NCBI GenBank assembly: GCA_043826565.1 | Contig: JBDRPX010000015.1 | Coordinates: forward strand, 67,317 to 131,316 | Length of the DNA: 64,000 nucleotides | Direction: 5' to 3' | From: Candidatus Omnitrophota bacterium | Lineage (GTDB): Bacteria; Omnitrophota; Gorgyraeia; B26-G9 | In this document: piece by piece, positions 8,445 through 55,600 of the stretch | Layout of the letters: each line of letters opens with the position of its first letter | Position numbering within the stretch: position 1 is the stretch's first letter | Position numbers and translations under genes: made by a program | The notes under the pieces: model-generated | What the model was told of the DNA's origin: nothing | What the model saw: the letters and a program-made list of their open reading frames with translations, nothing else | The model's database searches: none

Positions 8445-8453
8445 CCCCGACTA

Positions 8454-35150: not shown

Positions 35151-35190
35151 AGGCCTACAACAAATGTTATGAGAGGAATAGAAAAAAACA

Positions 35191-36809: not shown

Positions 36810-38325
36810 AGTTTGTTCAGTATCAAGTTCCGGACTTAAAACAATCGGGATCGATGTCGAAGTTAATATTGCCTCGCGCGGCTTACCCACACTTGAGATC
36901 GTGGGATTGCCGAGTAAGGCGGTGGCGGAAAGTAAAGAGCGGGTAAAAACAGCGATAATAAATTCTCAGCTGGAATTTCCGCAGCGTAAGATCATTATTA
37001 ATCTGGCTCCGGCAGATGTTCCTAAAGAAGGCTCTTGTTATGATCTGCCGATTGCCATGGGAATTTTAAGTTCGGAGCTGGGTTTTGACCTGCCGGAAAA
37101 AAGCCTTTTTTTCGGAGAGCTTTCTCTGGACGGTACTTTGCGGCACACAAAAGGAGCTTTGCTTTTGGCCTTATTTGCCAAAGAAAAAAATTTTAAAAAT
37201 ATCTTTGTGCCGAAAGCGTCGGCAAATGAAGCGGCAATTGTTAGAGGAGTAAATGTTTATCCGGTAGAAAATTTAAATCAGCTGATCGATCATTGCTTAG
37301 TCCAAACAGAAATAATCCCGGCTGAATATAGAGAATCCTCTGCGGATGAAATTTTCGTGGAATTTAATATGGCGGAAGTCTTAGGGCAGGAGCAGGCGAA
37401 AAGAGCTTTGGAAATCTCCGCGGCCGGAGGCCATAATTTTCTCATGGTCGGCAGTCCGGGAGCGGGAAAGACAATGCTGGCGCGGGCTTTGCCGGGAATA
37501 TTGCCGCCTTTATCGGAAAAAGAATCTTTAGAGGTAACCAAGATTTTTTCCATATCCGGGATGATCCCGCCGGAAGGTTCTTTAGTCAAGATCCGGCCGT
37601 TCCGCGCGCCGCATCATACGGTTTCCCAGATCGGCCTTACCGGAGGAGGAACAAAACCTCAGCCCGGAGAAATAAGCCTGGCGCACCGGGGTGTATTGTT
37701 TCTGGATGAGTTTAATGAATTTCCCCGGAGTGTGCTGGAAGCTTTGCGTCAGCCCATGGAAGACGGCAGTCTGACGATTTCCCGCAGCCGTCAGCGCGTA
37801 AAATATCCGGCGCAGTTTATTCTGGCAGCTTCGGCAAATCCCTGTCCCTGCGGATATTTAAATCATCCGAAAAGGGCTTGTAATTGTACCCCCAGAGAAA
37901 TAGAAAAATACCGCAACCGGGTTTCCGGACCGATCCTCGACCGCATTGATTTGCATATTGAAGTGCCGGTAGTGGATTTGGAACAACTGGCGCAGTTTGT
38001 TCCGCCGAAAAAAGCGCAGGCAACCTCTGCTCAGATCCGGCAGAGGGTTATCCGTGCCCGGGAAATCCAGCAGAAGCGTTTTAGCGAAGAGGGAATTCAC
38101 ACAAACGCGGAAATGAAAAACCGGCATATTACAAAATATTGCGCTTTATCCAAACCGGTAAAACAATTACTGGTTCAAGCCGGGAAAAAATTTCATCTTT
38201 CCGCCCGCGCTTATTATAAAATGATAAAAGTCGCCCGGACCATTGCTGATTTAGAAGGTACTTTAGAAATCACGATCGCGCATATGGCGGAAGCTTTGCA
38301 ATACCGCCTGAGAATTAAGGCCTGA
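36799..38325 (+). CDS. comM: Mg-chelatase-like AAA+ ATPase ComM/YifB
   Basis: N-terminal Lon-protease-like domain, Walker A GSPGAGKT, C-terminal ChlI domain. Confidence 0.9.
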   Translation: MLVKVCSVSSSGLKTIGIDVEVNIASRGLPTLEIVGLPSKAVAESKERVKTAIINSQLEFPQRKIIINLAPADVPKEGSCYDLPIAMGILSSELGFDLPEKSLFFGELSLDGTLRHTKGALLLALFAKEKNFKNIFVPKASANEAAIVRGVNVYPVENLNQLIDHCLVQTEIIPAEYRESSADEIFVEFNMAEVLGQEQAKRALEISAAGGHNFLMVGSPGAGKTMLARALPGILPPLSEKESLEVTKIFSISGMIPPEGSLVKIRPFRAPHHTVSQIGLTGGGTKPQPGEISLAHRGVLFLDEFNEFPRSVLEALRQPMEDGSLTISRSRQRVKYPAQFILAASANPCPCGYLNHPKRACNCTPREIEKYRNRVSGPILDRIDLHIEVPVVDLEQLAQFVPPKKAQATSAQIRQRVIRAREIQQKRFSEEGIHTNAEMKNRHITKYCALSKPVKQLLVQAGKKFHLSARAYYKMIKVARTIADLEGTLEITIAHMAEALQYRLRIKA

Positions 38326-38804: not shown

Positions 38805-39626
38805 ATGAGCTACTATACCGTACTAGGACTAGATAAAGAACCTTTTTCTTCCAGCCCGGACCCGGGATTCTTTTATGAATCTCCGGAGCACCATGCCGCG
38901 CTTATACGTTTAATGATTGGTATCCGCTTAAAACGGGGCTTGAGCTTAATGCTGGGTGACGTGGGTACCGGAAAAACTACATTATCCCGAAAACTTTTTC
39001 GAATATTAAAACAGCGCGAAGACATTGAATTTCATATGATCCTTGACCCTACCGATGACACGGAAGAACTTTTTTTAGATTCACTGGTCCGGACTTTTAA
39101 GATCACAATATCGGTAGAGAATCCTTCGGTCCTTGATTTCAAGGAAGCTTTAAAAAATTATTTATTTCGCGTGGGAGTGGAAGAAAAAAAAACCGTAGTC
39201 CTGCTTATTGATGAAGCGCAAAAACTTAATAGTATCTCTCTGGAAATTCTCCGCGTGCTTTTAAATTATGAGACCAATGAATATAAGCTTTTGCAATTGA
39301 TCGTCATGGGACAGCTGGAACTGCTGCCGCGGGTCCGGGAGATGAAAAATCTCTGGGACCGGATCAGTTTAAAATATGTATTAAATCCGCTTGATGAGCA
39401 GGAAACAAAAGAAATGATCGAATTTCGGCTGCAGCAGGCCGGGTATACAACCGGCCCCAGCTTTTTTACCGAGGAGGCGGTTGCGGAGATATATAATTAT
39501 ACTCAAGGTTATCCCCGCAGGATCGCGATGATTTGCCATAATTCGCTTCAGGAATTGGTGATGAAGAGTAAGCCGGTGGTGGATGCGAATATTATCCGGG
39601 AATTAATTGCCAGGGAAGTAACGTAA
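38805..39626 (+). CDS. ExeA/GspA/MshM-family AAA ATPase
   Basis: Walker A GDVGTGKTTL, Walker B LLIDEAQ; COG3267-like architecture. Confidence 0.8.
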   Translation: MSYYTVLGLDKEPFSSSPDPGFFYESPEHHAALIRLMIGIRLKRGLSLMLGDVGTGKTTLSRKLFRILKQREDIEFHMILDPTDDTEELFLDSLVRTFKITISVENPSVLDFKEALKNYLFRVGVEEKKTVVLLIDEAQKLNSISLEILRVLLNYETNEYKLLQLIVMGQLELLPRVREMKNLWDRISLKYVLNPLDEQETKEMIEFRLQQAGYTTGPSFFTEEAVAEIYNYTQGYPRRIAMICHNSLQELVMKSKPVVDANIIRELIAREVT

Positions 39627-39756
39627 CTAGTTCGTAGCTCATAGCTGATGGCTCATGGGAAAGACAGAAACTGGAAATCAATAATTAAAAAGTAAAAAGC
39701 AAAAGATCAAGAATGCACATTTAAAAATAGGAATATTTATTTATTGTGGTGTATGG

Positions 39757-39791
39757 CTTATAACTTATAACCTGTAACCTGTAACTTATTA
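39757..39791 (+). repeat. Tandem heptamer tract CTTATAA x2, CCTGTAA x2, CTTATTA immediately upstream of gene 39805
   Basis: Read from sequence; followed by tgtagg (GTAG head). Confidence 0.7.
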
Positions 39792-39804
39792 TGTAGGATT
39801 AATT

Positions 39805-40458
39805 ATGCCCCCGGATAAACTGACGCCCGAAGATAAATTACTGAATATTATTGAAGGGCCTTTGTCCGCGAAAGGGAACAGGTTTAACGCGAATAAGTCC
39901 GGCAGCGCGGCCTTAAAAAAAATGCGGTTTGGAGCGCTGTCTTTTTGGAAAGAAAAAAAATTTTTAAAAATTATTACTTTACAAAATCTTAACCGGGTGG
40001 TGGTCGTAACCGGAATATTTTTAGCGGGGTTTTTGCTGTTTGATTATCAGTATCAAAGAATTGATATGACAAACCGTCTGCTGACTGTAAAGCCGTCTCA
40101 GGAGCAGATAGACCGCTGGCTGAAACTTAAGCCTTCGCTGAAGATCTCGATCAAGGAAAGCCTTGAGGAAGCGCAGCGCCACAATATTTTTGCGCTGACC
40201 GCGTCAGGTTCCGGCACAAGTACCGGTAAGGTAAAAGAAGATGCCTGGGTTGCGGAAGCAACAGAGGCTGTTAATCAGTTAACTTTAGTGGGAGTTTTGT
40301 GGGAAACCGGTGCTCCGCAGGTAATGATCGAAGAAACTAAAAAAGGTAAAACGCATTTTTTAAGCGCCGGAGACGCGGTTGATATATTCAAAATTAAAAC
40401 GATAAACGAAAACAGTGTTGTTTTGGAAAAAAACGACAGAGAATGGGTATTAAGGTGA
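39805..40458 (+). CDS. Single-TM protein with C-terminal beta-domain, possibly GspC/PilP-like secretin-interacting protein
   Basis: 217 aa; TM at aa 65-85; C-terminal LVGVLWETGAPQVMIEE...GDAVDIFKIKTINENSVVLEKNDREWVL resembles the PilP/GspC HR fold pattern; lies between the ExeA-like gene and the secretin. Confidence 0.45.
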   Translation: MPPDKLTPEDKLLNIIEGPLSAKGNRFNANKSGSAALKKMRFGALSFWKEKKFLKIITLQNLNRVVVVTGIFLAGFLLFDYQYQRIDMTNRLLTVKPSQEQIDRWLKLKPSLKISIKESLEEAQRHNIFALTASGSGTSTGKVKEDAWVAEATEAVNQLTLVGVLWETGAPQVMIEETKKGKTHFLSAGDAVDIFKIKTINENSVVLEKNDREWVLR

Positions 40459-40462
40459 AAGA

Positions 40463-42217
40463 ATGCGATTATTGCTAAAGAGATTATTCAGGAGTATCGG
40501 AACAATAGTGCTGATTGGGTTATTGTTTTATCCGGGAATAGCCAGCTCTCAAGAAGATCCTGTTGATGAATTTTTACCGGAAGAAGCAGTTGGGGAAATT
40601 AATGAGTCTTTGCCGGAAGATGCGGCAATCAGCGAACAGGAAATTTTGGAAAACCTGACCATGGGCATAAAAAATAACGCAAACTCGATATCTTTGGATT
40701 TAAAAGGGATGAATGTTGTGGAATTACTGAGGATGCTGGCTTTAAAAACCGGGCTGACGATTGTTCCCAGCAAGGGGGTTAGCGGCCGGATCAATATATT
40801 TTTAAACAATGTAAGTTTTCAGGAAGCGCTGGATATAATTTTAGTTACCCAGAATTTAGCCAGTGAAAGAAAAGGCGATGTTATTTATATTACTACCGCG
40901 GCAGAGTATAAGCGTTTGTACGGGAAAGATTATGTTGAAAACCGGGAGCACAAAAATATAAAACTGCAATTTGCCGACCCGGCAAATGTCTTTGCGGTGT
41001 TGAGCCAGTTGAAATCGGAGATCGGTAAAGTTATTGTGGATAAGGCTTCGGGAATGGTTATTCTGATTGATATCCCGGAAAAACTCGAGGTTATGGAAAG
41101 CGCGGTAAAGAAACTTGAGACCCCTTTGGAAATGGCGGTGTTTGAGCTTAATTATGCCAAGCCGGAAGAAATAAAAGCCGGGCTGAATGAGATCATTACT
41201 CCGGGAACAGGGAAAATAATTTTTGACGAAAGAAGTTCCCAAGTGATCGTTTATGACCTTCCGGAAAAAATGGATAAGATCGAAAGAATCGTAAAAAGTT
41301 TAGACGCGGAGGAGAAAGAGGTATTTATTGAAGCGGATATAGTGCAGGTAACCTTAAGTGACCGGTATCAAAAAGGCATAGACTGGGAAATGATCTCCGG
41401 AGGAAATAATGATTTAGTCAGCGCTTTTCCCCTAACGCCCACGCCGGCAAACTTAGGTAAGATAAGTATCGGAACATTGGCCGGAGATGATTATACGGCA
41501 GTGCTGGAATTGCTCAGGACCCAGGGAGATATAAAAATACTTTCTAATCCTAAACTCGCGGTGGTAAATAATCAGGAAGCCAGAATTTTGGTCGGAACAC
41601 GGGATGCTTATGTTACTCAGACTTTAAGCCAGGCCGAATCAACAACGGTTACTTCGGAAAATATTGAATTTATCGATGTCGGAGTAAAATTAAATGTTGT
41701 TCCGAAAATCAATAATGACGGGTTTATTACCATGACTATTAAGCCGGAAGTCAGCAATGTCGCTGAAACAATCACGACTTCACTTGGCAGCCGTATTCCG
41801 ATTGTGGAAACATCGGAAGTGGAAACGGTAGTGAAAGTAAAAGATAATACTATGATCATGATCGCGGGTTTACGTAAAGACGAAAAAAGAGATCAAAGGG
41901 AAGGTGTCCCCGGCCTGGAAAAATTACCGTTTTTGGGCGGCCTTTTCCGCTCACGGGATCAAAGCACCCGGCAGACAGAAATCATAGTCTTTATTACCCC
42001 GCATATTATTACCGGAGCGGAAGCCTCCCCGGAAGGTTATAAAAGAGAATTTATGGGGAATAAACAAAATGTTACTGAAGCTAAAGAACCAAGCGGCGAT
42101 ATATTCTTAGAAGAATTAGGCCTGGTTAATTCTTTGCCGGAAGATGAAGGCGGGGAAGAAGATATTATGGAAAATGATGATTTTGATTTTGAAGACCAAT
42201 TAAAAGGAATTAAGTAA
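40463..42217 (+). CDS. Secretin (PilQ/GspD/MshL family)
   Basis: Signal peptide, N0-like domain, C-terminal secretin domain (ILSNPKLAVVNNQEARILVG...GVPGLEKLPFLGGLFR). Confidence 0.85.
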   Translation: MRLLLKRLFRSIGTIVLIGLLFYPGIASSQEDPVDEFLPEEAVGEINESLPEDAAISEQEILENLTMGIKNNANSISLDLKGMNVVELLRMLALKTGLTIVPSKGVSGRINIFLNNVSFQEALDIILVTQNLASERKGDVIYITTAAEYKRLYGKDYVENREHKNIKLQFADPANVFAVLSQLKSEIGKVIVDKASGMVILIDIPEKLEVMESAVKKLETPLEMAVFELNYAKPEEIKAGLNEIITPGTGKIIFDERSSQVIVYDLPEKMDKIERIVKSLDAEEKEVFIEADIVQVTLSDRYQKGIDWEMISGGNNDLVSAFPLTPTPANLGKISIGTLAGDDYTAVLELLRTQGDIKILSNPKLAVVNNQEARILVGTRDAYVTQTLSQAESTTVTSENIEFIDVGVKLNVVPKINNDGFITMTIKPEVSNVAETITTSLGSRIPIVETSEVETVVKVKDNTMIMIAGLRKDEKRDQREGVPGLEKLPFLGGLFRSRDQSTRQTEIIVFITPHIITGAEASPEGYKREFMGNKQNVTEAKEPSGDIFLEELGLVNSLPEDEGGEEDIMENDDFDFEDQLKGIK

Positions 42218-42295
42218 AATAAAAACAGAAGATAGAGAATTGAAAATAGAAAATAGTAAAAAATTTTAAATATTTTTTAACCGAAAGGGTGTTTC

Positions 42296-44275
42296 ATGGC
42301 CAAACAAAGAGCGAAGTGTTTTTCATGGATATTGATTTTTTTCAGTATGTGTGTTTTTTTGCGCGCGCAGAAGGCTCTGGCGACTGATTATTCGAATATT
42401 CTGGAACAATACCGGGAAACAATCAAAGCGCAGGAAACAGATATAGAAAAGCTGGAAGAGAAGACTGCGTTGCTGCGCAAGGCTTGCCTCTTACTGAAAA
42501 ACAGCAATGAGATCAATGAAGCCAGAATAAAAGAGCTTGAGGATCAAAGTGAAGAACTGGCCATGGTGTCAAAATTAACCGAACTTTCAAAAAAGCAAAG
42601 GGAAAAGATCACTGACCAGGAAAAAGAAATAAATAAACTCAAAGAACAGCTAAAAGAAGAGCAGGCAAAAAGCCAAACCGCCGGTTCACAAGCTGCGGCA
42701 AAAAAGCAGGAAGAAATAAACAAACTCAAGGAACAGTTAAAAGAAGAACAGGCAAAAAGCCAGGCTGCCGGCGCGCAAGCTGCCGGGAAAATGGAAAAAG
42801 AAATCGACAGGCTAAAAGATGAAAATGCTAAGGTTGTAAAAGAAAATGCCGCATTGCATGGTTCTCTATCCGGCTTAAAATCTTCGGAAATGACGGGAGA
42901 AGACAGACGCAGAAAAACTGAAGATGAGATGATTAACCTTAAAAAGAAAAATGAACTGCTGATTGATTCTTATGAAATGCTTAAAAAGCGCAATGATTTT
43001 AACGAAGAAAGATTAAAAGCATTTGAAGATAGAAGCACCGAATCCCGAATGCTCGGACAGTTAAAGACTAAACTAAGCGAGCAGAGAGACGAGATCGAAA
43101 AAAAAGATGAGCTGATCAGGTCCTTGAAAAAGCAAAGCGAAATGCTTACGGATAAGAACTATTTGATCCGTCAGGAAAAACAATTTTCACTGGAGGCGGA
43201 CCAGAAAAGGATGGAAGAAAAAATCCAGTCGCTGGAGAATTCGATTGATGAGCTAAAAAAAGAAAACTCCGATCTGGCCCGGGAAAACAAAAAAATCCTC
43301 CTGGCTAAGCTTTCCCAGGATGAGTTACAGGAAGAAAGCGGATATTTAAAGGAAGAGGTTGAACGTTTAAAAAAGAAAAACACAGAATTAAGCAGTTCCG
43401 CTTCTTTGGGGAGCGAGACATCCGATGATTTAAAAGATAAACTTCAGTCGCTGGAGAATAAAGCTGATTCTTTAGAGGCAAGTGAGACGCGTCTGACCAA
43501 GGAAAACGCGATGCTGCGCGTTTCTCTCGAAGCGATGGAAGAAGCGGCCCGGACAAAAGTCGATACAATGTCGGAAGATGAAAGAATAAAATCGGTTATT
43601 GAGGCTAATGAACGGCTGGCGAAACTTACCGACAGCCAGTGGCAAATAATTTCTGAGCGTGAGAAAATTGTGACCGCACTTAAAGAAAGCACCCAAAAGC
43701 TGGAGGCGGCTATTGCTAAGATGAAAAGCGAAAACGCGGATACCGTTATCGGCTTAAAGAAAGATATCGCAATTTTAAAACAGGAAAAGCTGATTTTAAA
43801 TGATTCCTGCGAGCTGCTTGAGCAGAAGACAAAATTAAGTGAAGAAAAAGCGCAGTTATGGGAAGGCAAAGCCGCTAGTTTGGGGCTGGTGGAGCCGGAA
43901 GAAGCGCAAGCCGAAGATGATAAGTCCGGGCGTAATTTTTCCGGTAAGTCCAATTCCGGGAAAAAAGAAAAACCCGCGGAAAAGAAAATAAGTACCGATG
44001 AAATTGTCCGCTTGGAAAAAGAATCAGCCCTGGCGCATAAAAAATTAGGAGCAATTTATACGCAGCAAAAACTTTATAAAGAAGCGATTGATGCCTATCA
44101 AAAATCTATATCATATGATACAAGCGACGCCGCGATATATTATCAGCTGGGGCTTTTATGCGCGCAGTTAAAAAACAAACCGGAAGCAATAACCAATTTT
44201 AAAAAGTACCTAACCTTAAAGCCTAAAGCCAAGAACAGGAAAAGGGTTGAGGAACTGATAAAGATGCTGCAATGA
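42296..44275 (+). CDS. Coiled-coil protein with C-terminal TPR repeats (MshN-like?) containing an internal 28-aa tandem duplication
   Basis: 659 aa; signal/TM, ~550 aa heptad-rich K/E region, C-terminal TPRs (AIDAYQKSISYD...). Confidence 0.6.
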   Translation: MAKQRAKCFSWILIFFSMCVFLRAQKALATDYSNILEQYRETIKAQETDIEKLEEKTALLRKACLLLKNSNEINEARIKELEDQSEELAMVSKLTELSKKQREKITDQEKEINKLKEQLKEEQAKSQTAGSQAAAKKQEEINKLKEQLKEEQAKSQAAGAQAAGKMEKEIDRLKDENAKVVKENAALHGSLSGLKSSEMTGEDRRRKTEDEMINLKKKNELLIDSYEMLKKRNDFNEERLKAFEDRSTESRMLGQLKTKLSEQRDEIEKKDELIRSLKKQSEMLTDKNYLIRQEKQFSLEADQKRMEEKIQSLENSIDELKKENSDLARENKKILLAKLSQDELQEESGYLKEEVERLKKKNTELSSSASLGSETSDDLKDKLQSLENKADSLEASETRLTKENAMLRVSLEAMEEAARTKVDTMSEDERIKSVIEANERLAKLTDSQWQIISEREKIVTALKESTQKLEAAIAKMKSENADTVIGLKKDIAILKQEKLILNDSCELLEQKTKLSEEKAQLWEGKAASLGLVEPEEAQAEDDKSGRNFSGKSNSGKKEKPAEKKISTDEIVRLEKESALAHKKLGAIYTQQKLYKEAIDAYQKSISYDTSDAAIYYQLGLLCAQLKNKPEAITNFKKYLTLKPKAKNRKRVEELIKMLQ

Positions 44276-44985
44276 AGAAAATGCTTGTCTGGGGTCTTAT
44301 GATATCAATCATGGGAGCGCTTGCCGGAGTGAGCGTTTTTTTGTTCTTAAAGGTAAAGTCCCTGAGAGTTAAACTCGAGCAGAATCAGCATGTCTGCGAA
44401 CGGCTTTCCCAAGATATAAATGATTCGCGCAAAGAAAAAGAGGAAATTATTAACAAAAGTGAACAGCTTAATTCCGAAGTTGTTTCCTCTTTGGGCTTAA
44501 GCAATAAACTCCGGCAGGAGAATAAGGAATTAAAAAAGGAATTAGAACCGATAAAAAAGGATTTAGAGGAAAAAGAACAGCTGTTAAAAAAATTAAAGCA
44601 GGATATTATAATTGCCCAGGAAAAAACTCAGGCAAAAGAAGCTCAAACTGAAAAATTCAAGGCAGAGAGTGTTAAGCTAAAAGAAAAAATTGTGTTTTTA
44701 GAGAAAAGTATCCAAAGGGAAAAAGTGGATTTTTATTATAATCTGGGGGTAGCCTATACCAAGGCGAAGATGTATGAGCAGGCGATAAAAGTATATGAAC
44801 AGTCGCTGGACTTAGACGCGGAAAACCCGGAAGCTAATTATAATTTAGGCTTAATATATCAGAATATTAAAAAAGATACGCAAACAGCAGTAGCTTATTA
44901 TCAGCGTTATCTGGAGTTAATTCCGGATGGCGAAGAAGCGCAGGAAATTGAAGAGTTAATTATGGAATTGACCGGCAGGTTTTAA
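44272..44985 (+). CDS. Coiled-coil + TPR membrane protein
   Basis: 237 aa; N-terminal TM, coiled coil, C-terminal TPRs; ATGA overlap. Confidence 0.6.
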   Translation: MKKMLVWGLMISIMGALAGVSVFLFLKVKSLRVKLEQNQHVCERLSQDINDSRKEKEEIINKSEQLNSEVVSSLGLSNKLRQENKELKKELEPIKKDLEEKEQLLKKLKQDIIIAQEKTQAKEAQTEKFKAESVKLKEKIVFLEKSIQREKVDFYYNLGVAYTKAKMYEQAIKVYEQSLDLDAENPEANYNLGLIYQNIKKDTQTAVAYYQRYLELIPDGEEAQEIEELIMELTGRF

Positions 44986-45024: not shown

Positions 45025-45315
45025 TTGAGAAAGCGAACTATTATTATCAAATATGCGATCCTTGTCCTGATCATGGCATTGATACTTTTAGCCGCGTTGA
45101 ATATTCTGGCAAGCCGGTCGATCAGTCAAATAGCTCCGATAAAAGAGCTTGAATTCCAGAGCCAAAGCAAATTAGGGGGGCTGGAAGTTTCCGAAGAACT
45201 GGGTGAAAAATATAAACAGGATACACAGGCTTATGAAGCCTTAGCTGTAGAATTAAAAAAAAGTGTTTTGAAGATGAGAGAATTGCAAAAAACAATAAAT
45301 CCGGAACTTTTGTGA
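45025..45315 (+). CDS. Small hypothetical membrane protein (TTG start)
   Basis: 96 aa with one TM plus coiled coil; start codon uncertain. Confidence 0.3.
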   Translation: MRKRTIIIKYAILVLIMALILLAALNILASRSISQIAPIKELEFQSQSKLGGLEVSEELGEKYKQDTQAYEALAVELKKSVLKMRELQKTINPELL

Positions 45316-45350
45316 TAACAAACAGTTGCGGTTTACAGTGCCACGCACTA

Positions 45351-45379
45351 TTGCGAGCCTTTATATAGTATGGTATACT
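45351..45379 (+). promoter_or_regulatory. Candidate promoter: -35 TTGCGA, 17-nt spacer, TGg-TATACT extended -10
   Basis: TTGCGA 45351-45356; TG 45371-45372; TATACT 45374-45379; would give a ~235-nt leader before ATG 45624. Confidence 0.4.
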
Positions 45380-45575
45380 TTTAGTAGAGGAAATAGTAGG
45401 TGTGTTAAAGGCAAACTCAGCGGAAGCTGAGGACGCAAAGCCGTGCGTCCTGGAGATATTATCGGGATTGGCAGGTTACAAACAGTCAAAAGATATATCT
45501 CAGGCATTGTTTGCCTGGGATTTTTTTTTGAAAGGAAGTCAAAGTGCCACGCACCCGCCCGTCGGAGACGGGCGA

Positions 45576-45610
45576 ATGACAAATGACAAATGACAAATGA
45601 CAAATGACAA
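45576..45610 (+). repeat. Perfect tandem heptamer (ATGACAA)x5 abutting the RBS of gene 45624
   Basis: Five exact copies 45576-45610, followed by atAGGGGGttaatATG. Confidence 0.95.
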
Positions 45611-45623
45611 ATAGGGGGTTAAT

Positions 45624-46571
45624 ATGCCAAGGATGCCAAGAGTGAATGTTGAAGGAGCATTATACTATATCACTTCCCGCGGAGACCGTAATCAGGAAAT
45701 ATTTAAAGATAAGGAAGATTACGCTACTTATATTGAATTATTAAAAAAATATAAAAAGCATCATGGTTTTAAATTATTCTCCTACATTCTGCTTCCGTCA
45801 CACCTCCATCTTTTAATAGAACTTTCGGCAAATTTAACAATTTCCCAGATCATGCACGACCTGAACTCTTCTTATATTAAATACTTTAATAAAAAATATG
45901 AACGCACCGGGCATTTATTTACCGAACGTTACCGCTGTGTATTAATAGAAAAAGACCCTTGGCTTAAGGCCGTTACCGCGCATATGCATTTAAATCCTGT
46001 CCGGGTAAACGCGGCAGAATCCTGGAAAGAATATTCTTTAGGCAGTGCCAAAGCTTATTTGGGGGCAAAAGACACAGAACTTGACCTGACCGAAGAGATC
46101 AAAGAGGTAAATACTCAGCTTAAAGGAGTAAAATACGAAGACTTTTTGGCCAGCCTTAACAAAGAAGAAATAAAGACATTAAAGACAAGTTTTGCCCGAA
46201 AGCTTATTGTCGGGTCCCGGGAATTTAAGAATAAAATAGAAGAAAAAGTCGAAGAGACTAAGACTCAGGAGCCCGAAGAACAGAGTGACCAGGAGAATAA
46301 ATTTATTTTCAGCGGAAGTGTCGCAGTGGTGGTTCTCCTTATTATTGTGGGATTTTTAATTAAAGGGCATTTTGATTTGAAGGAAAAATATAATTTGACT
46401 ACTCATAGAAAAAAAATAGAAATGGAACGCCGGATCCGGGAAGAAAAAGAACTGGTGACTAAGAATTTAAAAGAAAAATATGCCGCGGATGAAGTTTCGT
46501 TTGAAGCCATGCAAAAAAGGCTGGAGATTGAAAAGAAAAAAATAAAAGAACTGGAAAAGAAAATTAACTAG
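45624..46571 (+). CDS. HUH/Y1 transposase-like domain (IS200/RAYT-like) fused to a TM helix and K/E-rich coiled-coil C-terminal region
   Basis: N-terminal ~130 aa with HUH motif PSHLHLLIE and Tyr motif TERYRCVLIE; TM FIFSGSVAVVVLLIIVGFLI; C-terminal KIEMERRIREEKE... coiled coil. Confidence 0.6.
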   Translation: MPRMPRVNVEGALYYITSRGDRNQEIFKDKEDYATYIELLKKYKKHHGFKLFSYILLPSHLHLLIELSANLTISQIMHDLNSSYIKYFNKKYERTGHLFTERYRCVLIEKDPWLKAVTAHMHLNPVRVNAAESWKEYSLGSAKAYLGAKDTELDLTEEIKEVNTQLKGVKYEDFLASLNKEEIKTLKTSFARKLIVGSREFKNKIEEKVEETKTQEPEEQSDQENKFIFSGSVAVVVLLIIVGFLIKGHFDLKEKYNLTTHRKKIEMERRIREEKELVTKNLKEKYAADEVSFEAMQKRLEIEKKKIKELEKKIN

Positions 46572-46632: not shown

Positions 46633-49600
46633 ATGAAGATGATGATTAAAAAAACAATTGGTGTGCTACTGGTAGTATTGCTTGTGGTTTTCGGCTTAGC
46701 CAAAGCAGGATATCTGCAGGAAGCCGGTACCTTTCTGCAGGATTCCTGGAATTCGGGCACGAGTTCGACTGTGGCGGTGCATCCGGGCAATCAAAGTAAT
46801 TGGTCGCGCTATACTTCCCGGGACTCAAATATCCTTACTGCCGGAGGGTCAATTTATTTAGCGCCGAATACATTTACGGTGACCGATACCTCGGATACGG
46901 ATTTTGCAAAAGGCACATTAAATAATGTAATTATCAGCGGAACCGGTAATGGTTCTCAGCTGGAACTGACCTCCAGCGTTACGGACCCGTTTGCTTCTCA
47001 ATTAGGTGAATGGTTAAATTTGCCGTCTATACCCGCTCCGGGATTATTTTCTACCTATACCAAAATGGGCAATTATATTTATTGTTTGTTTGGCTCCGGG
47101 GACGGAAAACAGTTCGGCCGCTTTAATCTTACCAGTAAAACCTGGGAATTTTTAACGCCGATTCCGGTGGCGGTAGCGGTTGGGGCAACAATCACTAACG
47201 ACGGAGAATATATTTATGCTTTGCGCGGTTCCGGTTCAAGAGACGCGTATTTTTATCTGCCTCCGGAAGGGCCTGATCCGGACCCGGCAAATACTTTATT
47301 TTCTGTAGCTTCTCCGGCTCCCGGAGAATGGAAGCAATTTCCATCTCTAACTTCCGGGGTTAATTATGGATCTAATATTGTGCGTACCGGCGGTACGCTA
47401 AGCAGTAAGTCCGGAGCTTTATACGCGATGTGCGGATCCGGATCAACAACATTTGTTAAATATGATCCGAATATCGGCGGCGGAGTATGGATGGGCAGAA
47501 GTTCCACACCGGCTACGATCGGAGAAGGCGGAGCATTAGCCTACAAGCCCGGAAGTAATTTTATATACGCGGCCCGGGGATCCCAGACAGATACATTCTG
47601 GAGATATAATATCAGCGCAAATACTTGGGATACCAGCCTTGCGGCAGTTCCTGATCTAGATCCTTCAAATACAACGACAAATATAAATGTTAGATTTTGG
47701 CAGGGTTCGGACCTGTGGTATCCGGGATCAGGTGATTATGTTTATGCCGCGGGTATGTATGATGAATATGACAGCAGTACGGTTTACCGGCGTCAAAACC
47801 GAAGCTTTTTTAAATACGGGCCGTTAAGCGGCGCGGCAACCTGGACCAGATTACCGGATGTTCCGTCATATCTTGGCGCGTATAAATTTATTATTTATGA
47901 TCCGGATGCCGGCGGCCCGACAGAAGGTGATGAACTGCAGTATTTTTCCGGGAAAAATTATACCCGGCCGTGGCGGTTTGATAATGTGAATGAAAAATGG
48001 ATAACCTTATCACAGGCACCGTATGACGCGCCTTATGGTATTAATATTTGCTATCCGGGAACCGGAGATTTTCTTTATTATATTCCGGCAGACGGTAATT
48101 ATGATTTTTACCGCTATTCAATTTCCGGAAATTCCTGGGAAAGGCTTAAAAATCTTCCTTCCGGCCCCAGATACGCGGGTACACGTTTATGTTATTTAAA
48201 CGGATATATTTATTGTTTAAAAGGATATACCTCCGGGTCTTTTTATCGTTATGCCATAGCGCAAACCCCGGGGGCAGACAATTGGGACTATTTAGCTAAT
48301 TATCCGTATACTGACTTAGAATACGGGTCCAGTATTATCGGAGTGCAGATTGCCGGCCAGGATTATATTTACGGGTTAAGAGGGAATGAATATGGTAATT
48401 TTTATCGCTATAATGTTAGCACAGATACCTGGGCAGACACAATGGCCACAATGCCGGATCAGCCGGATGGAAGTTATTTAATATTTCCGAATTATGCGGA
48501 GCCCAACGGATACAAATATATTTACGCGGCGCGCGGCCAGTACAGCAATGACATGTATAAATACGGGCCCATAGAAGAAGATGAAAATTTAACCGATGAT
48601 ATTGACGGAGATTTCCAGACTAAAGGCCGCTGGACCCAGGTTACGGATACGCCCAGTTATTTTCGTTTTTGTGAGAATTACGGAGCTTGTTTGTCTTATC
48701 AGGGAAGCGGGCCGTATATTTACGCGTTTACCGGAGATAATGATGATATTGGGTACGCGTTTAGGTTTGCCCGCTATAATATGGATACTGATGCCTGGGA
48801 TGACCTTGATTCTACTCCCATGAATCAGACTTATTTTGATTGTACCTCAACAAGTGATGCTATCTTCGCGGTGGGTTATTATGGCTATGGCAATTTCTGG
48901 AAATATGATTTGGCTACCCAGCAATGGAATGAGCCGGTTATTGATCAATACCGCAATGAGTTGGGGACTACGGTAGTTGATAGTAATAATAATATTTATC
49001 TGGTATACGGCGGCCGGGACGGGTACCATTATTCACATTTCTGGAAGTTTGATCCGAATCAAAACCGGTGGACGGATATTATTCGCGCGCCGTTTGTTTT
49101 AGCGGCGGGAGTTAAAGCAGAATATCTAACAAGTACAAATTCTATCTATGTTACCGAGGGCCGCGGATCAACGACATTATACAAATATAATGTCGGGACA
49201 AAGGTCTGGAGTGAATGCGCGGAATCTCCGATACGGTTTTGGCGCGGCGCGCAGTTAGCCGCGGATGATGCGAACAATATTATTTATGCTATGCCGGGCT
49301 GGGATATTAGAAATTTTTATGTATATGATGCCGCGGATTACTGGAATCAGCTGGAAAATCCGCCGAAAGCTCATGAAGATATGATCGAAGGCATGGAAGT
49401 AGCAAATGGAAAAGTTTATTTGCTTAGCGGTGATGACGAAGCAGAGTTTTATGAATACTCCCCTTTGCCGACAAATACCTGGCTGCCGAAAACAAAGGTC
49501 GGAGACCCGACTGGTGATGGGTCGGTTTTTGAAACTACCAGCCATGGCGGAGGATTGTTTTATCCGGGCTCCGGAGATTTGATGTATTGTATTACCCGGT

Positions 49601-52600
49601 CCAGCAATAAAGTGCTTTTTACATATTCTCTATCTACGGACCGGTGGAATCAGCTTGCCGAACTGCCGATCGACCCGTATGACCGCCCGACATCAATAGT
49701 GGCCGCGGGAAAACCATGGTTTTTTATCTTTAATTATCGCTGGGATGATTATCTGATGCGCTATCATGTGGCGGAGAATATTTATGACCTGCCGTCTTTT
49801 TTACCCGCGGAAATCAATGAGGATTGCGCTTTAGCCGGGTATAAAGGATATATTTATTATCTAAACAGAGATACGTTTTACAGATATAATGCCCAGCTTA
49901 ATCTTTGGTCGGAGTTGCTGGCTCCGCCGATAACATTTGATGAAACTGATACAACAATGCGGATTGTTGAGTTCGAAGGGCAGCCGTACGCGTATGTTAC
50001 CGGAGGTAATAACCGAAATGGATTTTACCGTTATAGTATTACCAGCAATACCTGGCAGGAATTACCTTCTCCGCCGGCGAATTTTGAAGTGGGAACTTCC
50101 ATGACGCAAAAAGGAAATTATTTATATATACTGCGGGGAGAGTCAAATGCGTTTTGGGAATACAATCTGGTAAATAATACCTGGGCTTTGGCAACAGATA
50201 CGCCGCAATATGTGTATTATGGCGGGCAGGTTGTGTATCCGGGCAGCGGGGATTATGTTTATGTTATGACCGGAAATCATACGGCAAATCTTTACCGGTA
50301 CAATACCGTGGCCAAAAATTGGACCGCGCGGACTCCGGCTCCGGTACCTATGCATAATGCGCATTCAGAATTGATCTATCCCGGTTTTGGCGATTATTTA
50401 TTTGTCCTGCAGGGAGCCTCATATAATACTGATCAAGGTTCATATGTATTTATGCGGTATAAAATGTCTGATCCGGGCGGGGATACCTGGGAAGAACTTA
50501 CGCCGTCGTCTTTTGCGGTTAGGCATCCGGGAACTTTGATCTGGGGGGACGGAGAATATTTTTATGGTATAGAAGGCCGGGGGAACAAGCTGGCCAGATA
50601 TTATTCTTACTGTTTCGGCGACTATACTTCGGGAGTAAAAGAGATCGGCAATCACAGCGGATGGGGCGATGTCAGCTGGATTTTTAACAGTGTGCAGTCG
50701 GCAGCAATTGCTTTTCGCAGCGGGGATACTTTGGATCTATCCGATGCGGATGTCTGGTCTAATGTGGCCGATGTTACTAATGGCCAGGACTTAAGTAATT
50801 CCGCGGCTTGCGCGAATACGGATAAATATATCCAGTATAAGATTACTTTTTCCACGGATGAATTAGCGGAGAGCCCGGCCATTGAACAAATGCAGTTTGA
50901 ATGGGAAAAATATCCGATTTCTCAGACTTTGACCTCCTCTATTTACGATACTACCTTTCTTACCAACAGAATCCTTGATCTTTCCTGGCAGGAAACTCTG
51001 CCCCTGGGAACGGACGCGCGTTTTCAGATGCGCACTTCCGCGGATAATAATACCTGGTCCAGCTGGATGGGAATTGCCGCGGCGCAGGTTTTAACTAATG
51101 ACCTCTCTGATGAGGATGATTATGCCAGATCAAGTAAGATCCAAATAGCTTCCGGGATAGCAAAACTGTTTAAAGAATTAGCTGATTTTAAATATATGCA
51201 GACGATTACAGTGGATAATCTGGGCGGCCCTTTAGAGACCAATAAATTAGTAAATGTGGTGATCCCCAAGACAAATACCCATTTTTGGAATAATGTCAGA
51301 GATGACGGATATGATGTTCGTTTTTATGACGGAACCCAGAAATATGAATATAAACTGATTGATTTTGACCGGGCAAATAAAACCGGAGCGTTCTTAGTTC
51401 AGATCCCGTCTCTGCCCGCGGATGATGAGCTGTCAATATATATGCTTTATGACAGTCCTTCCGCGGATACAGAAAGCAATGAGGCTTTGCGTATTGATGT
51501 AAGAGAATCTGATCTGGCCGCGAGATGGAATTTTGATCAGACTATTGGAAATACTGTCCCGGATTCCTCCGGCAATAATAATAACGGATATTTTATGAGC
51601 AGTCCGTTATGGACCACCGAAGGAAAATTCGGCGGAGCTTTAAGCTGTGACGGCCTTGATGATTATGTAACAGTTCCGAGCACCTCGTCTTTACAGCTTA
51701 CCGGAGATATGACCTTGGGTATCTGGGTGTATCCGGAAAATGTCGGCACTAACTGGTATATGCAGACAATCCATAAAAGATATTGGGGAGAATTTTCCTT
51801 TGGTATTTACCGGGCCGGAAGTTTAGGCTATCTTCAGGGGTATGGTACGAGTTCTTATAATTCCTGGTCGCTTTCCAATTATAATAAAGTTCAAAATAAT
51901 AAATGGCATCATCTGGTTGTGGTCCGAGACGGCACAACCAAGCAGATCACTTCCTATATTAACGGAGTACAGCAGCGTTCCTATAATTATGCCAGCGGCT
52001 ATCAGCCGGTAACCTCATATGATCCGGTAATGATCATGCGCGGATATACCGGGTATGAAATTAAAGGAAAAGTAGACCATACAACAATTCATAATGTTCC
52101 GCTTACGGCCGCGGAAGTTGAACAGCTCTACTTAGGGTATGATCTAAGCAACCCGGAAGATTTGTCGATAAATGAAAGTTCCGCTACCTGTGTAAATCTC
52201 GCGGGATGGTTATATAAAGTTCCGATTACGGTTACGAATAATTCCGCCAGCATCGTAAATAATTCGATTATAACCATAAATGCCGAACAATGGCATGAAT
52301 TCTGGCAGCATGTAAACAGCGACGGCAGTGATGTGCGGGCAGTTGATTCTGATGATACTACCCTGCTTACTTATTATCTGCAGGAATTTGATTCCGCGGC
52401 AAAGACCGGCAGGATCAATGTAGAGATTCCTACGATCCCCGCGTCTTCAAGCAAGACGATCTATTTGTATTACGGTAATAGCGGGGCCAGTAATATTGGA
52501 AACAGTTCTCTAAACTTAGAATGGGATGTGGGTACGTATCCTGATTTTAGCGGATGGTCACGTCCTTCAACCTGGAACACAAACACCGGCATATACATGA

Positions 52601-55600
52601 TGGGCGGATACGCGCGTTTAGGCTTGAGCGCGGACACGCAAAAGACAGTAATCAATCTTCCGGCCGGAACCTATGAAATTGAATTCAATTATTATTATAT
52701 TGATTCCTGGGATTCAGAATACGGCCAGTTATATTGGAACGGTACCAGGATTTGGAATGTATCCAGCAGTACGATCCCGTCCGGGCCTGATGTCGGCGGA
52801 TACAGTACTTACGGCGACCGCGTGGACCATCCGGCGTTTAAGGTTACGGTTGTTCATCCCGGAGGGAACGCGGTTTTACGTTTTGCTTCCACGACAAATG
52901 AAAGCACGGTTAATGAAAGTTTTGGTGTGAATAATATTATTATCCGCACATTACAGTCCTCAACATTGGAAGTTACTCCGCCGTATGTAACGGAAAATAA
53001 TATTTATGATACCGGAACTTATTACACGGACAATCCGGTTGTTCAGCCGATATTGGGTGTTTTTTATGAAGGTAATATATCAAATTTCCAGGCGGTTACT
53101 ACAGAGCCGTCAAATACGGATATCGGGTTCCAGGTTTCGGCGGACGGGTATAACTGGTATTGGTATTCAACCGGTGATTGGCGAAAAACAGAACTGGGAT
53201 ATCTTAATACAAACAGCGCGGCCCAGATAAATTCTAACCTGGTGAATTTTCAGTCAAAATTCCCGGCTGGTGATTTTTATTACCGGGCATTTTTAAATTC
53301 TAGCGGTACGAATACCCCGGAACTCAATGAGGTGAGAATTACTTTAACCAGTCCGCCGAGTTATTATTTTGACGCGGCGGCCGGAGAGGCTGTAAATACG
53401 ATCAATGAAGATTGTCTGGATGACCGGTATATTCAATACCGGACAACTTTGTATTCCTACGGAGAAAGTACGCCGGTTATTGACAGTGTCAGTATTGATT
53501 ATATTAAATCAGAAGTAAATGTAACCTCCCCTAACGGCGGTGAGGAATGGCCGGTTGCTTCGGCTCAAACAATCACCTGGACTTCCGCGGGTGTTGATGA
53601 CGCGGCTTCGCATGTGAAGATAGAATATTCATCAAATAACGGAACCAGCTGGAATACGATAATTGGTTCCACGGCAAATGACGGCAGTTATCCCTGGACT
53701 GTGGAAAATTCCGCTTCTCCTAATTGTTTAGTCCGGATCACTTCTGTGGAATTTCCCACGGTTATTGATCAGTCTGACGCGGTATTTCAGATCATGGGCC
53801 TTATTCTTACCGCGCCCAATGGCGGCCAAGTATGGGAAGTAAACCGGATCCATACGATTACCTGGACATCTTCAGGTACGGTCAGTAATGAATTAACTAT
53901 TGAATATTCTACGAATAATGGCACCAGCTGGGCCGGAACTTTGGCAACTCAGCGGCCGAATACCGGTACTACTAATTGCCAGATGCCGAATGTTAATTCT
54001 GATGCGGTTCGGATCCGGATATTTGACTCCCTTAATACTAATGTTATTGATGTTTCCGACGCGGTTATGTCCATTGTTCCGGCACCGGTGATCACCATAA
54101 ATACTCCGAACGGCGCAGAGCAATGGATCGTGGGCGATACTTATACCATAGATTGGCAAACCAATTCCCGCCAGTTCTCGGCGAATGTAATATTGGAATA
54201 TTCCAAAGATAATTTCAGTACAACTGTTCCCATTATTACTAAGAGTATTGGAACTGCGGCCGGCCCAAACAATAATGATGACATTTCCGGAAGCCATGAC
54301 TGGGTAGTTCCGGAAGATATATCCACGACAGTAAAGATAAGAATAAGGGAAGAAAGTATTCCTCCGGCACGGGATACGCAGAGTATTATCTGGGATATGT
54401 CGGATAATAATTTTTCGCTTATTTTCCCGTATATTACGATAAGTTCACCGCAGGAAGAGGTTACCTGGGTTTCCGGAGATGCTCATGATATTACCTGGAC
54501 ATTCTTTGGAACAGTAAGCAATGATCTGCTCCTTGAATATACAACTGACGGGTCTAATTTCACGACTATTGACGATAACCAAGCTAATGACGGATTATAT
54601 TCCTGGACTGTTCCGGATGAAGATTCAGCTACGGTGCAGGTAAGAATTACGGATAATGCCTGGAATCAGGTTACGGGGATTTCTCCGGTATTTACAATTA
54701 TTCCCTATCCGGTGCTTAAAGTTTTATATCCGAACGGCGGTGAAGTATTGGCGATTGGAGCTACTTATGAACTTCGCTGGACTTCTTTTGGCCAGAAATT
54801 AGCCTCCGGCGGCGCGGATTATTTTAATATTGATATCTGGTATTCCGCGAATAATGGAACTACCTGGGCTGTTGTCAGTTTAGGCCAGGCTAATGACGGG
54901 TCTTTGAACTGGCAGACGGCTGATGCCGAAACCACGGAGGCTTTAGTCAAAGTTGAAGATAGTAATGACCTGCTGATTGTGGATACTTCGGATGCTGTTT
55001 TTGAAATCACAAATCCGGTTCTGACAATTACTTCTCCGAACGGCGCGGAAGGGTGGTACGCAACCGGTACGTATGATATAACCTGGGATTCTTTGGGAGC
55101 GGTCAGCAATAATCTGTTATTAGAGTATTCAACTAATGCCGGTGTTTCCTGGACAACGATTGCCGGCAGCCAGAATAATGATCATGTTTATTCCTGGACG
55201 GTTGCCGATGTTATTTCTGATCAGGTCAAAATAAAAATTACCGATAGCAATCGTCCTTTGGTTTGGGATGATTCTGATGCTAATTTCAGTATTCTTGCTC
55301 CGACAATTACAGTTACCGTACCAAATGGCGGAGAAGAATGGATTATCGGAACAAGCCATGGTATAGAATGGGCCACACAAGGCGGAGATGTTAACGCGGT
55401 TAAAGATAATCTGACGATCCAATATTCATCTAACGGAGGAGGGTCTTGGAATGATCTATGGACCGGCTTGGCAAATTCCGGAAGTCAGGCGTGGGAAATT
55501 CCGGATGATTTGTCCGATAACTGTCTGATCAGGATTTTTGACGCGTTCCGTCCGGCTACCATAGACCAGTCTGACGCGATGTTCGCGATTAAGATTCCGT

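Follow-up and report, generated by a model that had tools for sequence, protein, structure and literature searches.

Does a gene that public records would label a transposase, and that stands immediately before the gene for a 4,085-amino-acid (aa) protein, belong to a mobile element or to the operon of its giant neighbor? This question is raised by a 64,000-nt stretch of a Candidatus Omnitrophota genome (GCA_043826565.1, contig JBDRPX010000015.1, positions 67,317 to 131,316), hereafter the window, in whose numbering all window positions are given; loci from related genomes are labelled L001 and so on. The original prediction, made from the DNA sequence, described the gene at 45624-46571 as a membrane-anchored Y1 transposase-like fusion, perhaps domesticated, that regulates or rearranges the adjacent giant gene. 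We find that its product is a non-mobile, membrane-anchored host protein with an HUH fold but without the catalytic tyrosine, not a jumping gene, and that the gene is the conserved first gene of a giant-protein operon controlled by a cyclic di-GMP (c-di-GMP) riboswitch. Our overall reading, which we give about an even chance of being right in all its parts, is that of a domesticated descendant of RAYT-type proteins (similar to TnpA-Y1 subclass 2.1) that heads an operon for an MshQ-like giant protein and would couple this operon to the state of the envelope, probably by binding conserved boxes. The evidence comes from the fold, the loss of tyrosine, the membrane anchor, the synteny, the riboswitch, the boxes, the paralogy of the C-terminal module and purifying selection.

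The open reading frame (ORF) is real; it lies on the forward strand and encodes 315 aa. The profile check proposed with the original prediction came out in its favor, as Pfam assigned Y1_Tnp (PF01797) to aa 21-111 with 44.6 bits, where the gathering score is 23 (E=1.9e-11). The scores for the two NCBIfam models lay under their equivalog cut-offs (REP_Tyr_transpos, 68.6 bits vs 80; transpos_IS200, 17.7 bits vs 55). The identity of the fold was settled by a fold search, after a search of the PDB with the sequence alone had given no match and the family profile had reached 4ER8 only weakly (E=0.22). An AlphaFold2 model built from 89 family members (mean predicted local distance difference test score, pLDDT, 88.7) found E. 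coli TnpA-REP as its top Foldseek match in the PDB (4er8_A; 163 columns aligned at E=1e-7, target TM-score 0.73), with TnpA of IS200, ISDra2 and IS608 ranking next. Behind the core, aa 131-220 form the helical tail that is also seen in soluble relatives (H142-214 in the model), with the family consensus 'YxYSSY'. These soluble, plasmid-borne 'transposase' relatives are about 220-240 aa long and span only aa 1 to ~215; this part probably represents the whole ancestral soluble protein and would lie in the cytoplasm.

The two hallmark motifs initially claimed for this domain fared differently. The HUH motif stands: PSHLHLLIE covers aa 58-66, its His pair H60/H62 (encoded at 45801-45809) belongs to the central beta strand, matches H59/H61 of 4ER8 in the alignment and follows the His-hydrophobic-His pattern of IS200/IS605 enzymes, and the two columns hold His in 71/89 and 83/89 members, respectively. 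The proposed tyrosine motif, TERYRCVLIE, turned out to be the preceding beta strand, and its Y103 (45930-45932) falls in a column that is Tyr in only 49/89 relatives. In TnpA-REP, the catalytic tyrosine is Y115 and the HUH motif is H59-M60-H61 (Messing 2012, PMC3479197). When the family profile was aligned with 4ER8, Y115 fell on H120 of the window protein (encoded at 45981-45983), with 'TAHMHLNP' set against 'DYIYINP'. The motif AHMHLNP has therefore kept the NP of Y-x3-NP and lost the Tyr itself, so that helix alphaD carries His where the nucleophile would be. The H120 column is Tyr in 71/89 relatives, and the Tyr of 'REYIVNNP' in a canonical RAYT-like protein encoded elsewhere in the window (34011-34679) aligns on the same position. 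Structural modelling bore out the HUH fold that had been proposed, and the alignments contradicted the proposed catalytic tyrosine.

With its nucleophile replaced by His, the window protein would be incapable of the covalent cut-and-join chemistry of a Y1 transposase. Among the aligned members, the H-H-Y triad is intact in 65/89 (P0022, for example) and broken in 24/89, and the broken triads occur in many combinations (HHH in the clade of the window protein, EHF, RHH, QNC, QNF, SNY and others). For example, P0003 has the triad QNC, hence neither the Tyr nor the His pair, and still shows the synteny, the riboswitch and both boxes described below; the E-H-F clade has likewise kept synteny, riboswitch and boxes. 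As members with broken triads retain the synteny, catalysis is dispensable for the conserved role, and yet the domain is under purifying selection.

The family itself is large. A search of 5.8 billion proteins gave 114 matches, of which ~90 are full-length (~305-350 aa, 34-77% identity); those with a named source come almost exclusively from Omnitrophota/Planctomycetes-Verrucomicrobia-Chlamydiae (PVC) assemblies, where their records call them 'transposase' or 'REP element-mobilizing transposase RayT'. When 1.84 billion representatives were searched with the profile, 3,333 clusters were obtained at E<=1e-30, and the best 150 of these 3,333 (clustered at 50% identity) all reached E<1e-68, with lengths of mostly 300-450 aa. 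Compared with the 77%-identical and equally Tyr-less orthologue of L064, the ratio of nonsynonymous to synonymous substitutions (dN/dS) is ~0.10 overall and 0.12 in aa 1-130, approximate values because dS is near saturation. A ratio this low between two Tyr-less orthologues indicates a functional protein and not a decaying one. Conservation in the family peaks in the HUH-fold core, where G96 and R102 are invariant and H97, K86, N89 and K110 are conserved in at least 90% of members, above the level of the catalytic residues, which argues for a retained ligand-binding function. Some metagenome-assembled genomes (MAGs) carry two Y1-like loci (L040 and L047 in nzgw292; L035 and L057); long downstream ORFs are visible in L047 and L035, and L040 ends inside the Y1-like gene.

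The hydrophobic transmembrane helix proposed earlier was confirmed at aa 227-246 (FIFSGSVAVVVLLIIVGFLI). An equivalent helix is present in 88/89 family members, usually with a Lys/Arg pair just before it. The ~150-aa coiled coil said to follow it was overstated: 69 residues follow, and aa 131-220, which stand before the helix, correspond to the tail of the soluble relatives. In the model, one long helix (H220-314) covers both the transmembrane segment and the tail. When the C-terminal 105 aa were searched against the 5.8-billion-protein set, no match was obtained at E<=0.01. A paralogue of this module is encoded next door. The last gene of the upstream secretin/TPR operon, which is outside the riboswitch-controlled unit and directly before the upstream box, encodes a 96-aa protein that aligns end to end with aa ~222-315, its transmembrane helix being followed by EKYxxDxxxYEALxxxL...EL in the BLASTP motif alignment. 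Comparing a profile of 10 such small proteins with a profile of 13 C-terminal modules gave an hhalign probability of 99.1% (E=6e-19, 97 columns), a score possibly somewhat inflated by coiled-coil composition. The small transmembrane protein is encoded in the same position in L064, L006, L007, L008, L017, L036, L002 and L004.

A second arrangement is seen in a subfamily of ~400 aa, which has a beta-rich domain (WETMQT...RGEW) instead of the coiled coil. Here, the beta-rich domain recurs in a ~200-aa signal-peptide protein whose gene precedes the riboswitch. In L021, the pair matches by BLASTP with E=4e-19 and 33% identity over 171 aa, the signal peptide being aligned on the transmembrane helix, and a cross-locus pair (upstream protein of L053 vs Y1-like protein of L044) gives E=4e-10. 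A positive-inside count gave no orientation for the transmembrane helix (3.8 vs 3.6 Lys+Arg on the two sides). However, since the C-terminal module is homologous to signal-peptide proteins, it is probably periplasmic, and the protein is likely a single-pass one with N-in/C-out topology. Taken together, the two arrangements show that the HUH protein acquired a copy of its neighbor's envelope module in either of two forms.

Next, we turn to the link with the giant gene. As originally stated, the two genes adjoin: the Y1-like stop codon ends at 46571, a gap of 61 nt leads to the ATG at 46633, and there is neither a terminator-like site on the forward strand nor a small ORF in between. The giant protein has an N-terminal hydrophobic signal or anchor and Kelch, LamG (Laminin_G_3), DUF2341 and Ig-like repeats. 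The synteny was assessed in a sample of 58 loci from GTDB species genomes, and it was judged where at least 5 kb of downstream sequence was available. In nearly every such Omnitrophota locus, a very long ORF comes next after the homologue, or after 1-3 small ORFs in between, and runs off the end of the locus with 1,200 to >2,600 codons open. The search of other genomes for the same fusion beside giant genes, suggested with the original prediction, therefore succeeded. In L001, L002 and L004, a giant ORF with DUF2341, Kelch and Laminin_G_3 occupies the homologous position, and in L002 the Y1-like gene and the next gene overlap by 4 nt. Small intervening ORFs of 140-310 aa occur in L008, L009, L020, L021, L023, L024, L027, L028, L038, L047, L053, L054, L056 and L061; most encode signal peptides, several share a small beta-rich C-terminal region, and none of those tested has a Pfam domain except the radical-SAM ORF of L009. 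The conserved order is secretin/TPR cluster, leader, Y1-like gene, 0-3 small genes and giant gene. The association of the Y1-like gene with the giant gene is not accidental.

The leader of the operon contains a c-di-GMP-I riboswitch aptamer (RF01051), which was also detected above the gathering score at the equivalent place in L001, L002 and L004. A covariance model built from these four aptamers and applied to the related GTDB loci located the aptamer in 40 of those searched, at a distance of 87-240 nt before the start of the homologue. In an alignment of 45 related sequences, 97% of the cells are paired and 18/22 pairs show double-sided changes, a level reached by 0/500 shuffles; slid controls collapse. 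Behind the aptamer, a stem with a run of at least six T was found in nearly all of 43 leaders, in almost all of them 1-27 nt away, and it never overlaps the aptamer except in L040. The extended -10 region of the predicted promoter, 'GGTATACTT', is kept in a 3-way leader alignment and at other loci. Folding of the window leader indicates that the P2 arm of the aptamer can pair with the 5' arm of the terminator, which suggests an OFF switch; this polarity is an uncontrolled thermodynamic prediction, and the positions of the alternative duplex vary among loci. Not all loci are arranged in the same way. In L013 (aptamer at 11544-11630) and L014 (4790-4883), riboswitch and boxes are located 3' of the Y1-like gene, before the next genes, and L033 has two riboswitches (5510-5595 and 7776-7862) and many boxes.

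The window leader also contains an insert between the downstream box and the ribosome-binding site, consisting of a perfect 8-bp hairpin (45555-45573) and a tandem repeat (45575-45612). It is absent from the 77%-identical L064 and from L006 and is probably not part of the conserved system. Its 7-nt repeat unit AATGACA could be slippage-prone in the manner of a contingency locus. As a separate observation, a gene for a response-regulator/GGDEF diguanylate cyclase (60039-60932, forward strand) follows ~1.1 kb 3' of the giant gene, with a gene for a 272-aa protein without domain match in between (59161-59979, forward strand), and GGDEF or PilZ genes are found nearby in related loci (L001, L004). 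The GGDEF protein may supply the riboswitch with its ligand locally.

A further conserved element accompanies promoter and terminator. The box AAAG-GTGCC-A-S-GCAC (AAAG-GTGCCASGCAC) is present in the same orientation at the promoter and after the terminator. Its 12-nt form AGTGCCACGCAC occurs in two exact copies in the 64 kb, which define a box-to-box segment of 206 bp, and 0/100 shuffles contained two copies; the box-carrying sequence reads AAAGTGCCACGCAC. The upstream box is kept in place in L006, L064, L004, L002, L008, L017, L036 and the L023/L045 clade. Altogether, the box was found in 48/52 loci with the consensus AAAA-GTGCCAGGCAC, the window type being GTGCCACGCAC. Usually, one or two boxes lie between the terminator and the ribosome-binding site, ~20 loci have another just upstream of the -35 hexamer, and almost all copies point in one orientation. 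The density amounts to 3.97 boxes per kb in the 465-nt leaders vs 0.067 per kb in the other 714 kb (~59-fold). Where the Y1-like gene is outside the riboswitch unit (L013, L014), or where no riboswitch was detected upstream of it (L031), the boxes stay with the regulatory region of the giant operon. No such boxes were found at the soluble relatives from Clostridia and Candidate Phyla Radiation (CPR) bacteria.

In one clade (L023/L043/L045/L048-L052), both copies read GTACCACGTAC, so that GTGC..GCAC has become GTAC..GTAC. This is a concerted change from G:C to A:T at the symmetric positions 3 and 9 and represents essentially one evolutionary event; the joint alteration of both boxes is what would be expected if one factor reads both. 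Tandem boxes are spaced by ~20-21, 31-33, 42 and 63 nt, which suggests helical phasing and thus a duplex operator. Equally, the box could act as a hairpin of 4 bp with a 3-nt loop in single-stranded DNA or RNA. Two other interpretations were discarded. A sigma-54 promoter (AGGCAC resembling TGGCAC) is ruled out, as the flanks of the box have no TTGC at the required spacing, and a role as part of the terminator or as an alternative RNA pairing is ruled out, as the terminators vary between loci while the box stays. A gene for a 75-aa MerR-like helix-turn-helix (HTH) protein heads the secretin cluster in many related loci (e.g. L002, 4859-5086) and is duplicated directly upstream of box and promoter in L045/L048-L052 (about 7510-7740 and about 2200-2420). 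It was not found in the 64-kb window, L001, L004 or L008, even at E=50, and this absence rules out the MerR-like protein as a universal binder of the box.

How might these parts work together? The original prediction lacked three parts, namely the c-di-GMP riboswitch, the boxes with their conservation and the small gene for a paralogous partner, and with these the reading moves from DNA rearrangement to regulation or coupling. We propose that the cytoplasmic HUH domain would act as a nucleic-acid-binding module instead of a nuclease and would recognize the small palindrome or hairpin box near the -35 hexamer and between terminator and ribosome-binding site. Since the window encodes no second conserved fold of a nucleic-acid-binding type in cis, it is most plausibly this domain that binds the boxes. 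The periplasmic coiled coil, in turn, would pair with its free paralogue from the secretin/TPR apparatus. The resulting transmembrane link, reminiscent of ToxR/ToxS, could adjust the expression of the giant operon to the condition of the envelope machinery, or localize it at the membrane, and would act on top of the c-di-GMP control. The direction of regulation is likewise what we infer.

Several points weigh against this proposal. Recognition of the box by the HUH domain is conjectural, and the suggested interaction of the two coiled coils is based on homology only. Characterized Y1/RAYT proteins bind single-stranded hairpins with stems longer than this 4-5-bp element, and the spacing of the boxes would suit a conventional dimeric transcription factor on double-stranded DNA. 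Many related clusters also contain the small MerR-like HTH gene, which adjoins the box in one clade but is absent from the window, L001, L004 and L008. Finally, 73% of the members have an intact triad, so that catalysis may still matter in many lineages.

A more ambitious form of the proposal, which we put forward tentatively, is a new type of transmembrane one-component system. In this system, an exapted, tyrosine-less HUH domain would read the box as duplex, non-template-strand DNA or RNA, and the C-terminal module would pair with its paralogue from the secretin apparatus. The protein would thereby feed the status of the envelope back on transcription, or tether the transcribing and translating locus to the membrane for co-synthetic export, beside the c-di-GMP riboswitch and across much of the Omnitrophota.

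Among the alternatives, a structural or assembly role survives best, and we consider it a possible, if rather doubtful, explanation. The protein would then belong to the secretin/giant-adhesin apparatus as a subunit or chaperone in the inner membrane, its dead HUH domain would serve only as a cytoplasmic scaffold for protein-protein contacts, and the boxes would be operators of an unrelated transcription factor. The homology of the periplasmic module to neighboring envelope proteins agrees with this, as do the presence of an own copy per giant operon, also in the MAGs with two loci (L040/L047, L035/L057), and the dispensable catalytic residues. We also count co-expression of the Y1-like protein with the giant protein in its favor, and the box spacing that fits a duplex-binding dimer together with the MerR-like gene in many clusters would suit an unrelated factor. 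However, it is the HUH-fold core, with the invariant G96 and R102, that is best conserved, as expected for retained ligand binding, and the window has no further cis gene for a conserved protein that binds nucleic acids.

An element similar to ops, at which transcription would pause and a processivity factor for the 12-kb gene would be recruited, appears improbable to us. The downstream box would be read in the non-template strand or the RNA, with the Y1-like protein playing the part of this factor or being unrelated to it. RfaH recognizes a short hairpin in the non-template strand, and the strand-specific orientation of the box, its A-rich 5' flank, its hairpin potential (GTGC-CAS-GCAC) and the fact that it is transcribed as part of the leader of so long an operon would all be compatible with this. 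The second box, however, is upstream of the -35 hexamer and hence outside the predicted transcript, and the annotated ORFs of the window, taken from 120 aa upward, include no NusG paralogue.

Slightly less credible still is an active site-specific HUH nuclease or recombinase that cuts at boxes flanking the promoter-riboswitch cassette, or inside the repeat-rich giant gene, and so switches or rearranges expression. The HUH His pair is present, the triad is intact in the majority of members, and in the window and several other loci two boxes in the same orientation bracket the promoter-riboswitch-terminator segment, superficially like left and right ends. But in the window protein and its closest relatives the nucleophilic Tyr is His, which makes this activity unlikely here, and members such as P0003 that lack the whole triad keep both boxes, which makes it unlikely for the family. 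Furthermore, most loci have boxes only 3' of the terminator, the boxes are 5' of the gene instead of flanking it, and none of the loci showed an excised or variant arrangement. The earlier idea that the protein rearranges the giant gene is thus unlikely to hold for the window protein, since it needs phosphotyrosine chemistry.

That an ordinary IS200/IS605 or REP-associated transposase sits beside the giant gene by chance, as database annotation of the homologues ('transposase', RayT) and the Y1_Tnp match might imply, is excluded by a fixed syntenic position in >50 loci, the lack of repetitive extragenic palindrome (REP) arrays and end hairpins and the membrane anchor, to which the sub-threshold equivalog scores, the missing catalytic Tyr and the strong purifying selection can be added. 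In the window, the gene has no flanking inverted repeats, REP arrays and end hairpins are lacking, and only the two 12-nt boxes and one match with 1 mismatch were found; together with the chromosomal housekeeping surroundings (yidC-mnmG-parAB, secA), this argues for a non-mobile gene. The only other Y1 gene in the 64 kb is unrelated at the BLAST level. The original view that an HUH/Y1-fold protein fused to a membrane anchor is no standard mobile-element architecture was well placed, and 'domesticated module' was the right category.

Comparison with known systems helps to place the protein. With the RAYT protein TnpA-REP (E. coli YafM, 4ER8), it shares the HUH/RNA-recognition-motif-like fold, the His pair and the '...NP' of the Tyr helix, as well as low copy number and a host-resident gene. 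It differs in having His for Tyr, no arrays of REPs or bacterial interspersed mosaic elements (the REPtron), and an additional transmembrane helix with a presumably periplasmic coiled coil; moreover, its gene is part of a riboswitch-controlled operon and its score falls short of the NCBIfam cut-off. Signatures of TnpA-Y1 subclass 2.1 are NH[YFV]H, FQ, Y[IV]HLNP and SS, and members of this subclass, also called TIRYT, have C-terminal HTH- or Bac_DnaA_C-like domains and terminal inverted repeats GGGG[AT][CG]A[CG] (Quentin et al. 2018, PMC6006769). The family consensus PNHLHLL, HLFQERY, AYxHLNP and a YSSY tail resembles these signatures, REPs are equally absent and the C-terminal tail is long, so that by its motifs the family consensus appears closest to subclass 2.1. 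The window protein itself departs from these motifs (SHLH, FT, HMHLNP, SLGS). In place of HTH/DnaA_C domains, the family has the transmembrane helix with coiled coil or beta domain, it often loses catalytic residues, and it is tied to giant genes and a riboswitch; for the window protein and its gene, neither a Bac_DnaA_C/HTH Pfam domain nor GGGG[AT][CG]A[CG] inverted repeats were found. With IS200/IS605 TnpA (IS608, ISDra2), only the common HUH fold and the His-hydrophobic-His strand are shared, whereas the window protein lacks the Tyr and the Y...Q motif and is twice as long, and its gene has no left and right end hairpins, no tnpB and no multiple copies.

On the regulatory side, ToxR/ToxS, TcpP/TcpH and CadC are membrane-tethered one-component regulators and offer an analogy. 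As in these, a cytoplasmic N-terminal domain of a nucleic-acid-binding type would be joined by a single transmembrane helix to a periplasmic module, with an adjacent gene for a small partner and candidate operator boxes at the controlled promoter. However, the domain is an HUH fold and not an OmpR-type winged helix, and the putative partner is a paralogue of the periplasmic module. Pilus and adhesin operons under c-di-GMP-I (GEMM-I) control likewise have an RF01051 aptamer and a terminator platform upstream of genes for surface structures, but here the first gene encodes a transposase-derived membrane protein and additional boxes bracket the riboswitch. With clusters for MSHA-type pili and similar to the type II secretion system (T2SS; MshL, MshM, MshN, MshQ), the locus shares a secretin, an ExeA/MshM-like AAA_22 ATPase and TPR proteins as well as a very large DUF2341/LamG protein, which by its domain content we take to resemble MshQ. 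All NCBIfam matches are under cut-off, though, the giant protein is far larger, and its gene is preceded by two insertions, a riboswitch and the gene for a Y1-like membrane protein. Finally, TnpB-derived TldR is a nuclease-dead transposon protein exapted as a regulator. By analogy, the window protein may be another transposon-derived nucleic-acid enzyme without catalysis that was recruited next to surface-structure genes; it differs in deriving from TnpA-Y1 and not TnpB, in having no guide RNA and in being membrane-anchored, and its own regulatory role is a proposed one.

The gene thus encodes a domesticated Y1/HUH protein with a new architecture in a new conserved regulatory setting. In the literature, we found no description of a transmembrane-anchored RAYT or of the riboswitch/box context at Omnitrophota giant-gene loci, and nothing relevant on MshQ/DUF2341. 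T2SS-like loci upstream of Omnitrophota giant genes have been described (West-Roberts et al. 2023 preprint), and the preprints on these giant genes mention the T2SS-like loci but not the Y1-like gene, the riboswitch or the boxes. As a large family labelled 'transposase' or RayT is in fact a fixed host gene, counts of mobile elements beside Omnitrophota giant genes may be inflated. If our reading is true, this is a clear case of a Y1/HUH domain recruited into a membrane protein and often catalytically dead, and the family offers a natural series of active-site losses to study the repurposing of HUH domains. The Omnitrophota, which are uncultured and may be predators or depend on hosts, express and export their giant genes by means that are not understood. 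The c-di-GMP riboswitch, the operator-like box and the paired membrane protein module provide concrete regulatory parts for such genes. The features of the locus are compiled in Table 1.

Table 1 Features of the Y1-like gene, its leader and its neighbors in the 64-kb window.
Feature	Position	Strand	Basis or remark
Upstream cluster	38805..44985	+	Pfam and NCBIfam; same order in L001, L002, L004, L064
ExeA/MshM-like AAA_22 ATPase	38805-39626	+	Pfam and NCBIfam
217-aa protein	39805-40458	+	Upstream cluster member
Secretin	40463-42217	+	Sub-threshold matches to PilQ, GspD, MshL models
Two transmembrane/coiled-coil TPR proteins	42296-44275, 44272-44985	+	Upstream cluster
96-aa transmembrane + helix protein	45025..45315	+	Paralogue of transmembrane + coiled-coil module; last gene of secretin/TPR operon
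Upstream box AGTGCCACGCAC	45337..45348	+	2 nt 5' of -35 hexamer
Sigma-70-like promoter TTGCGA-17 nt-TATACT, TG extension	45351..45379	+	Consensus scan; predicted, with transcription start near 45386
c-di-GMP-I riboswitch aptamer	45400..45483	+	Rfam RF01051, 60.3 bits vs gathering score 35
Intrinsic terminator, 10-bp stem + T9 (expression platform)	45497..45530	+	Terminator scan
Downstream box AGTGCCACGCAC	45543..45554	+	Between terminator and ribosome-binding site
Lineage-specific leader insert	45555..45612	+	Hairpin CGCCCGTC-GGA-GACGGGCG + (AATGACA)x5.4
Membrane-anchored Y1/HUH-like protein gene	45624..46571	+	ORF, 315 aa, ATG start
HUH-fold core, aa 1-130	45624..46013	+	Foldseek match and mapping to TnpA-REP H59/H61/Y115
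Helical extension, aa 131-226	46014..46301	+	Matches C-terminal tail of soluble Y1 proteins similar to subclass 2.1
Transmembrane helix, aa 227-246, FIFSGSVAVVVLLIIVGFLI	46302..46361	+	Kyte-Doolittle 19-residue mean 2.92
69-aa helical/coiled-coil tail	46362..46568	+	Conserved motif EKYxADxVSxEAMxKRLEIEKKK; probably periplasmic
Giant gene	46633..58890	+	4,085 aa from ATG 46633; 4,101 aa from ATG 46585

The remainder of the window is occupied by chromosomal housekeeping genes (yidC, mnmG, parAB, secA, lnt, RND efflux, Bat/MoxR, dprA). The second Y1_Tnp protein mentioned above (34011-34679, forward strand, 222 aa) has an intact HUH motif (NHIH) and Tyr and a long low-complexity insertion, and it looks like a member of subclass 2.4. 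Its neighbors encode a Schlafen/AlbA_2 protein, TrmO, DprA and a ComM-like Mg-chelatase, and a search around it, in 33700-35300, for inverted repeats able to form hairpins (arms within 60 nt) gave none. The dprA gene and the comM-like gene are located at 35925-38325. At the other end, the block at 526-13304 (yidC, mnmG, parA, parB, ndk, lnt, secA) looks origin-proximal, and type IV pilin-like genes are interspersed at 8013-8444, 12798-13304 (reverse strand) and 14711-15139 (reverse strand), two of them with ComP_DUS-like domains.

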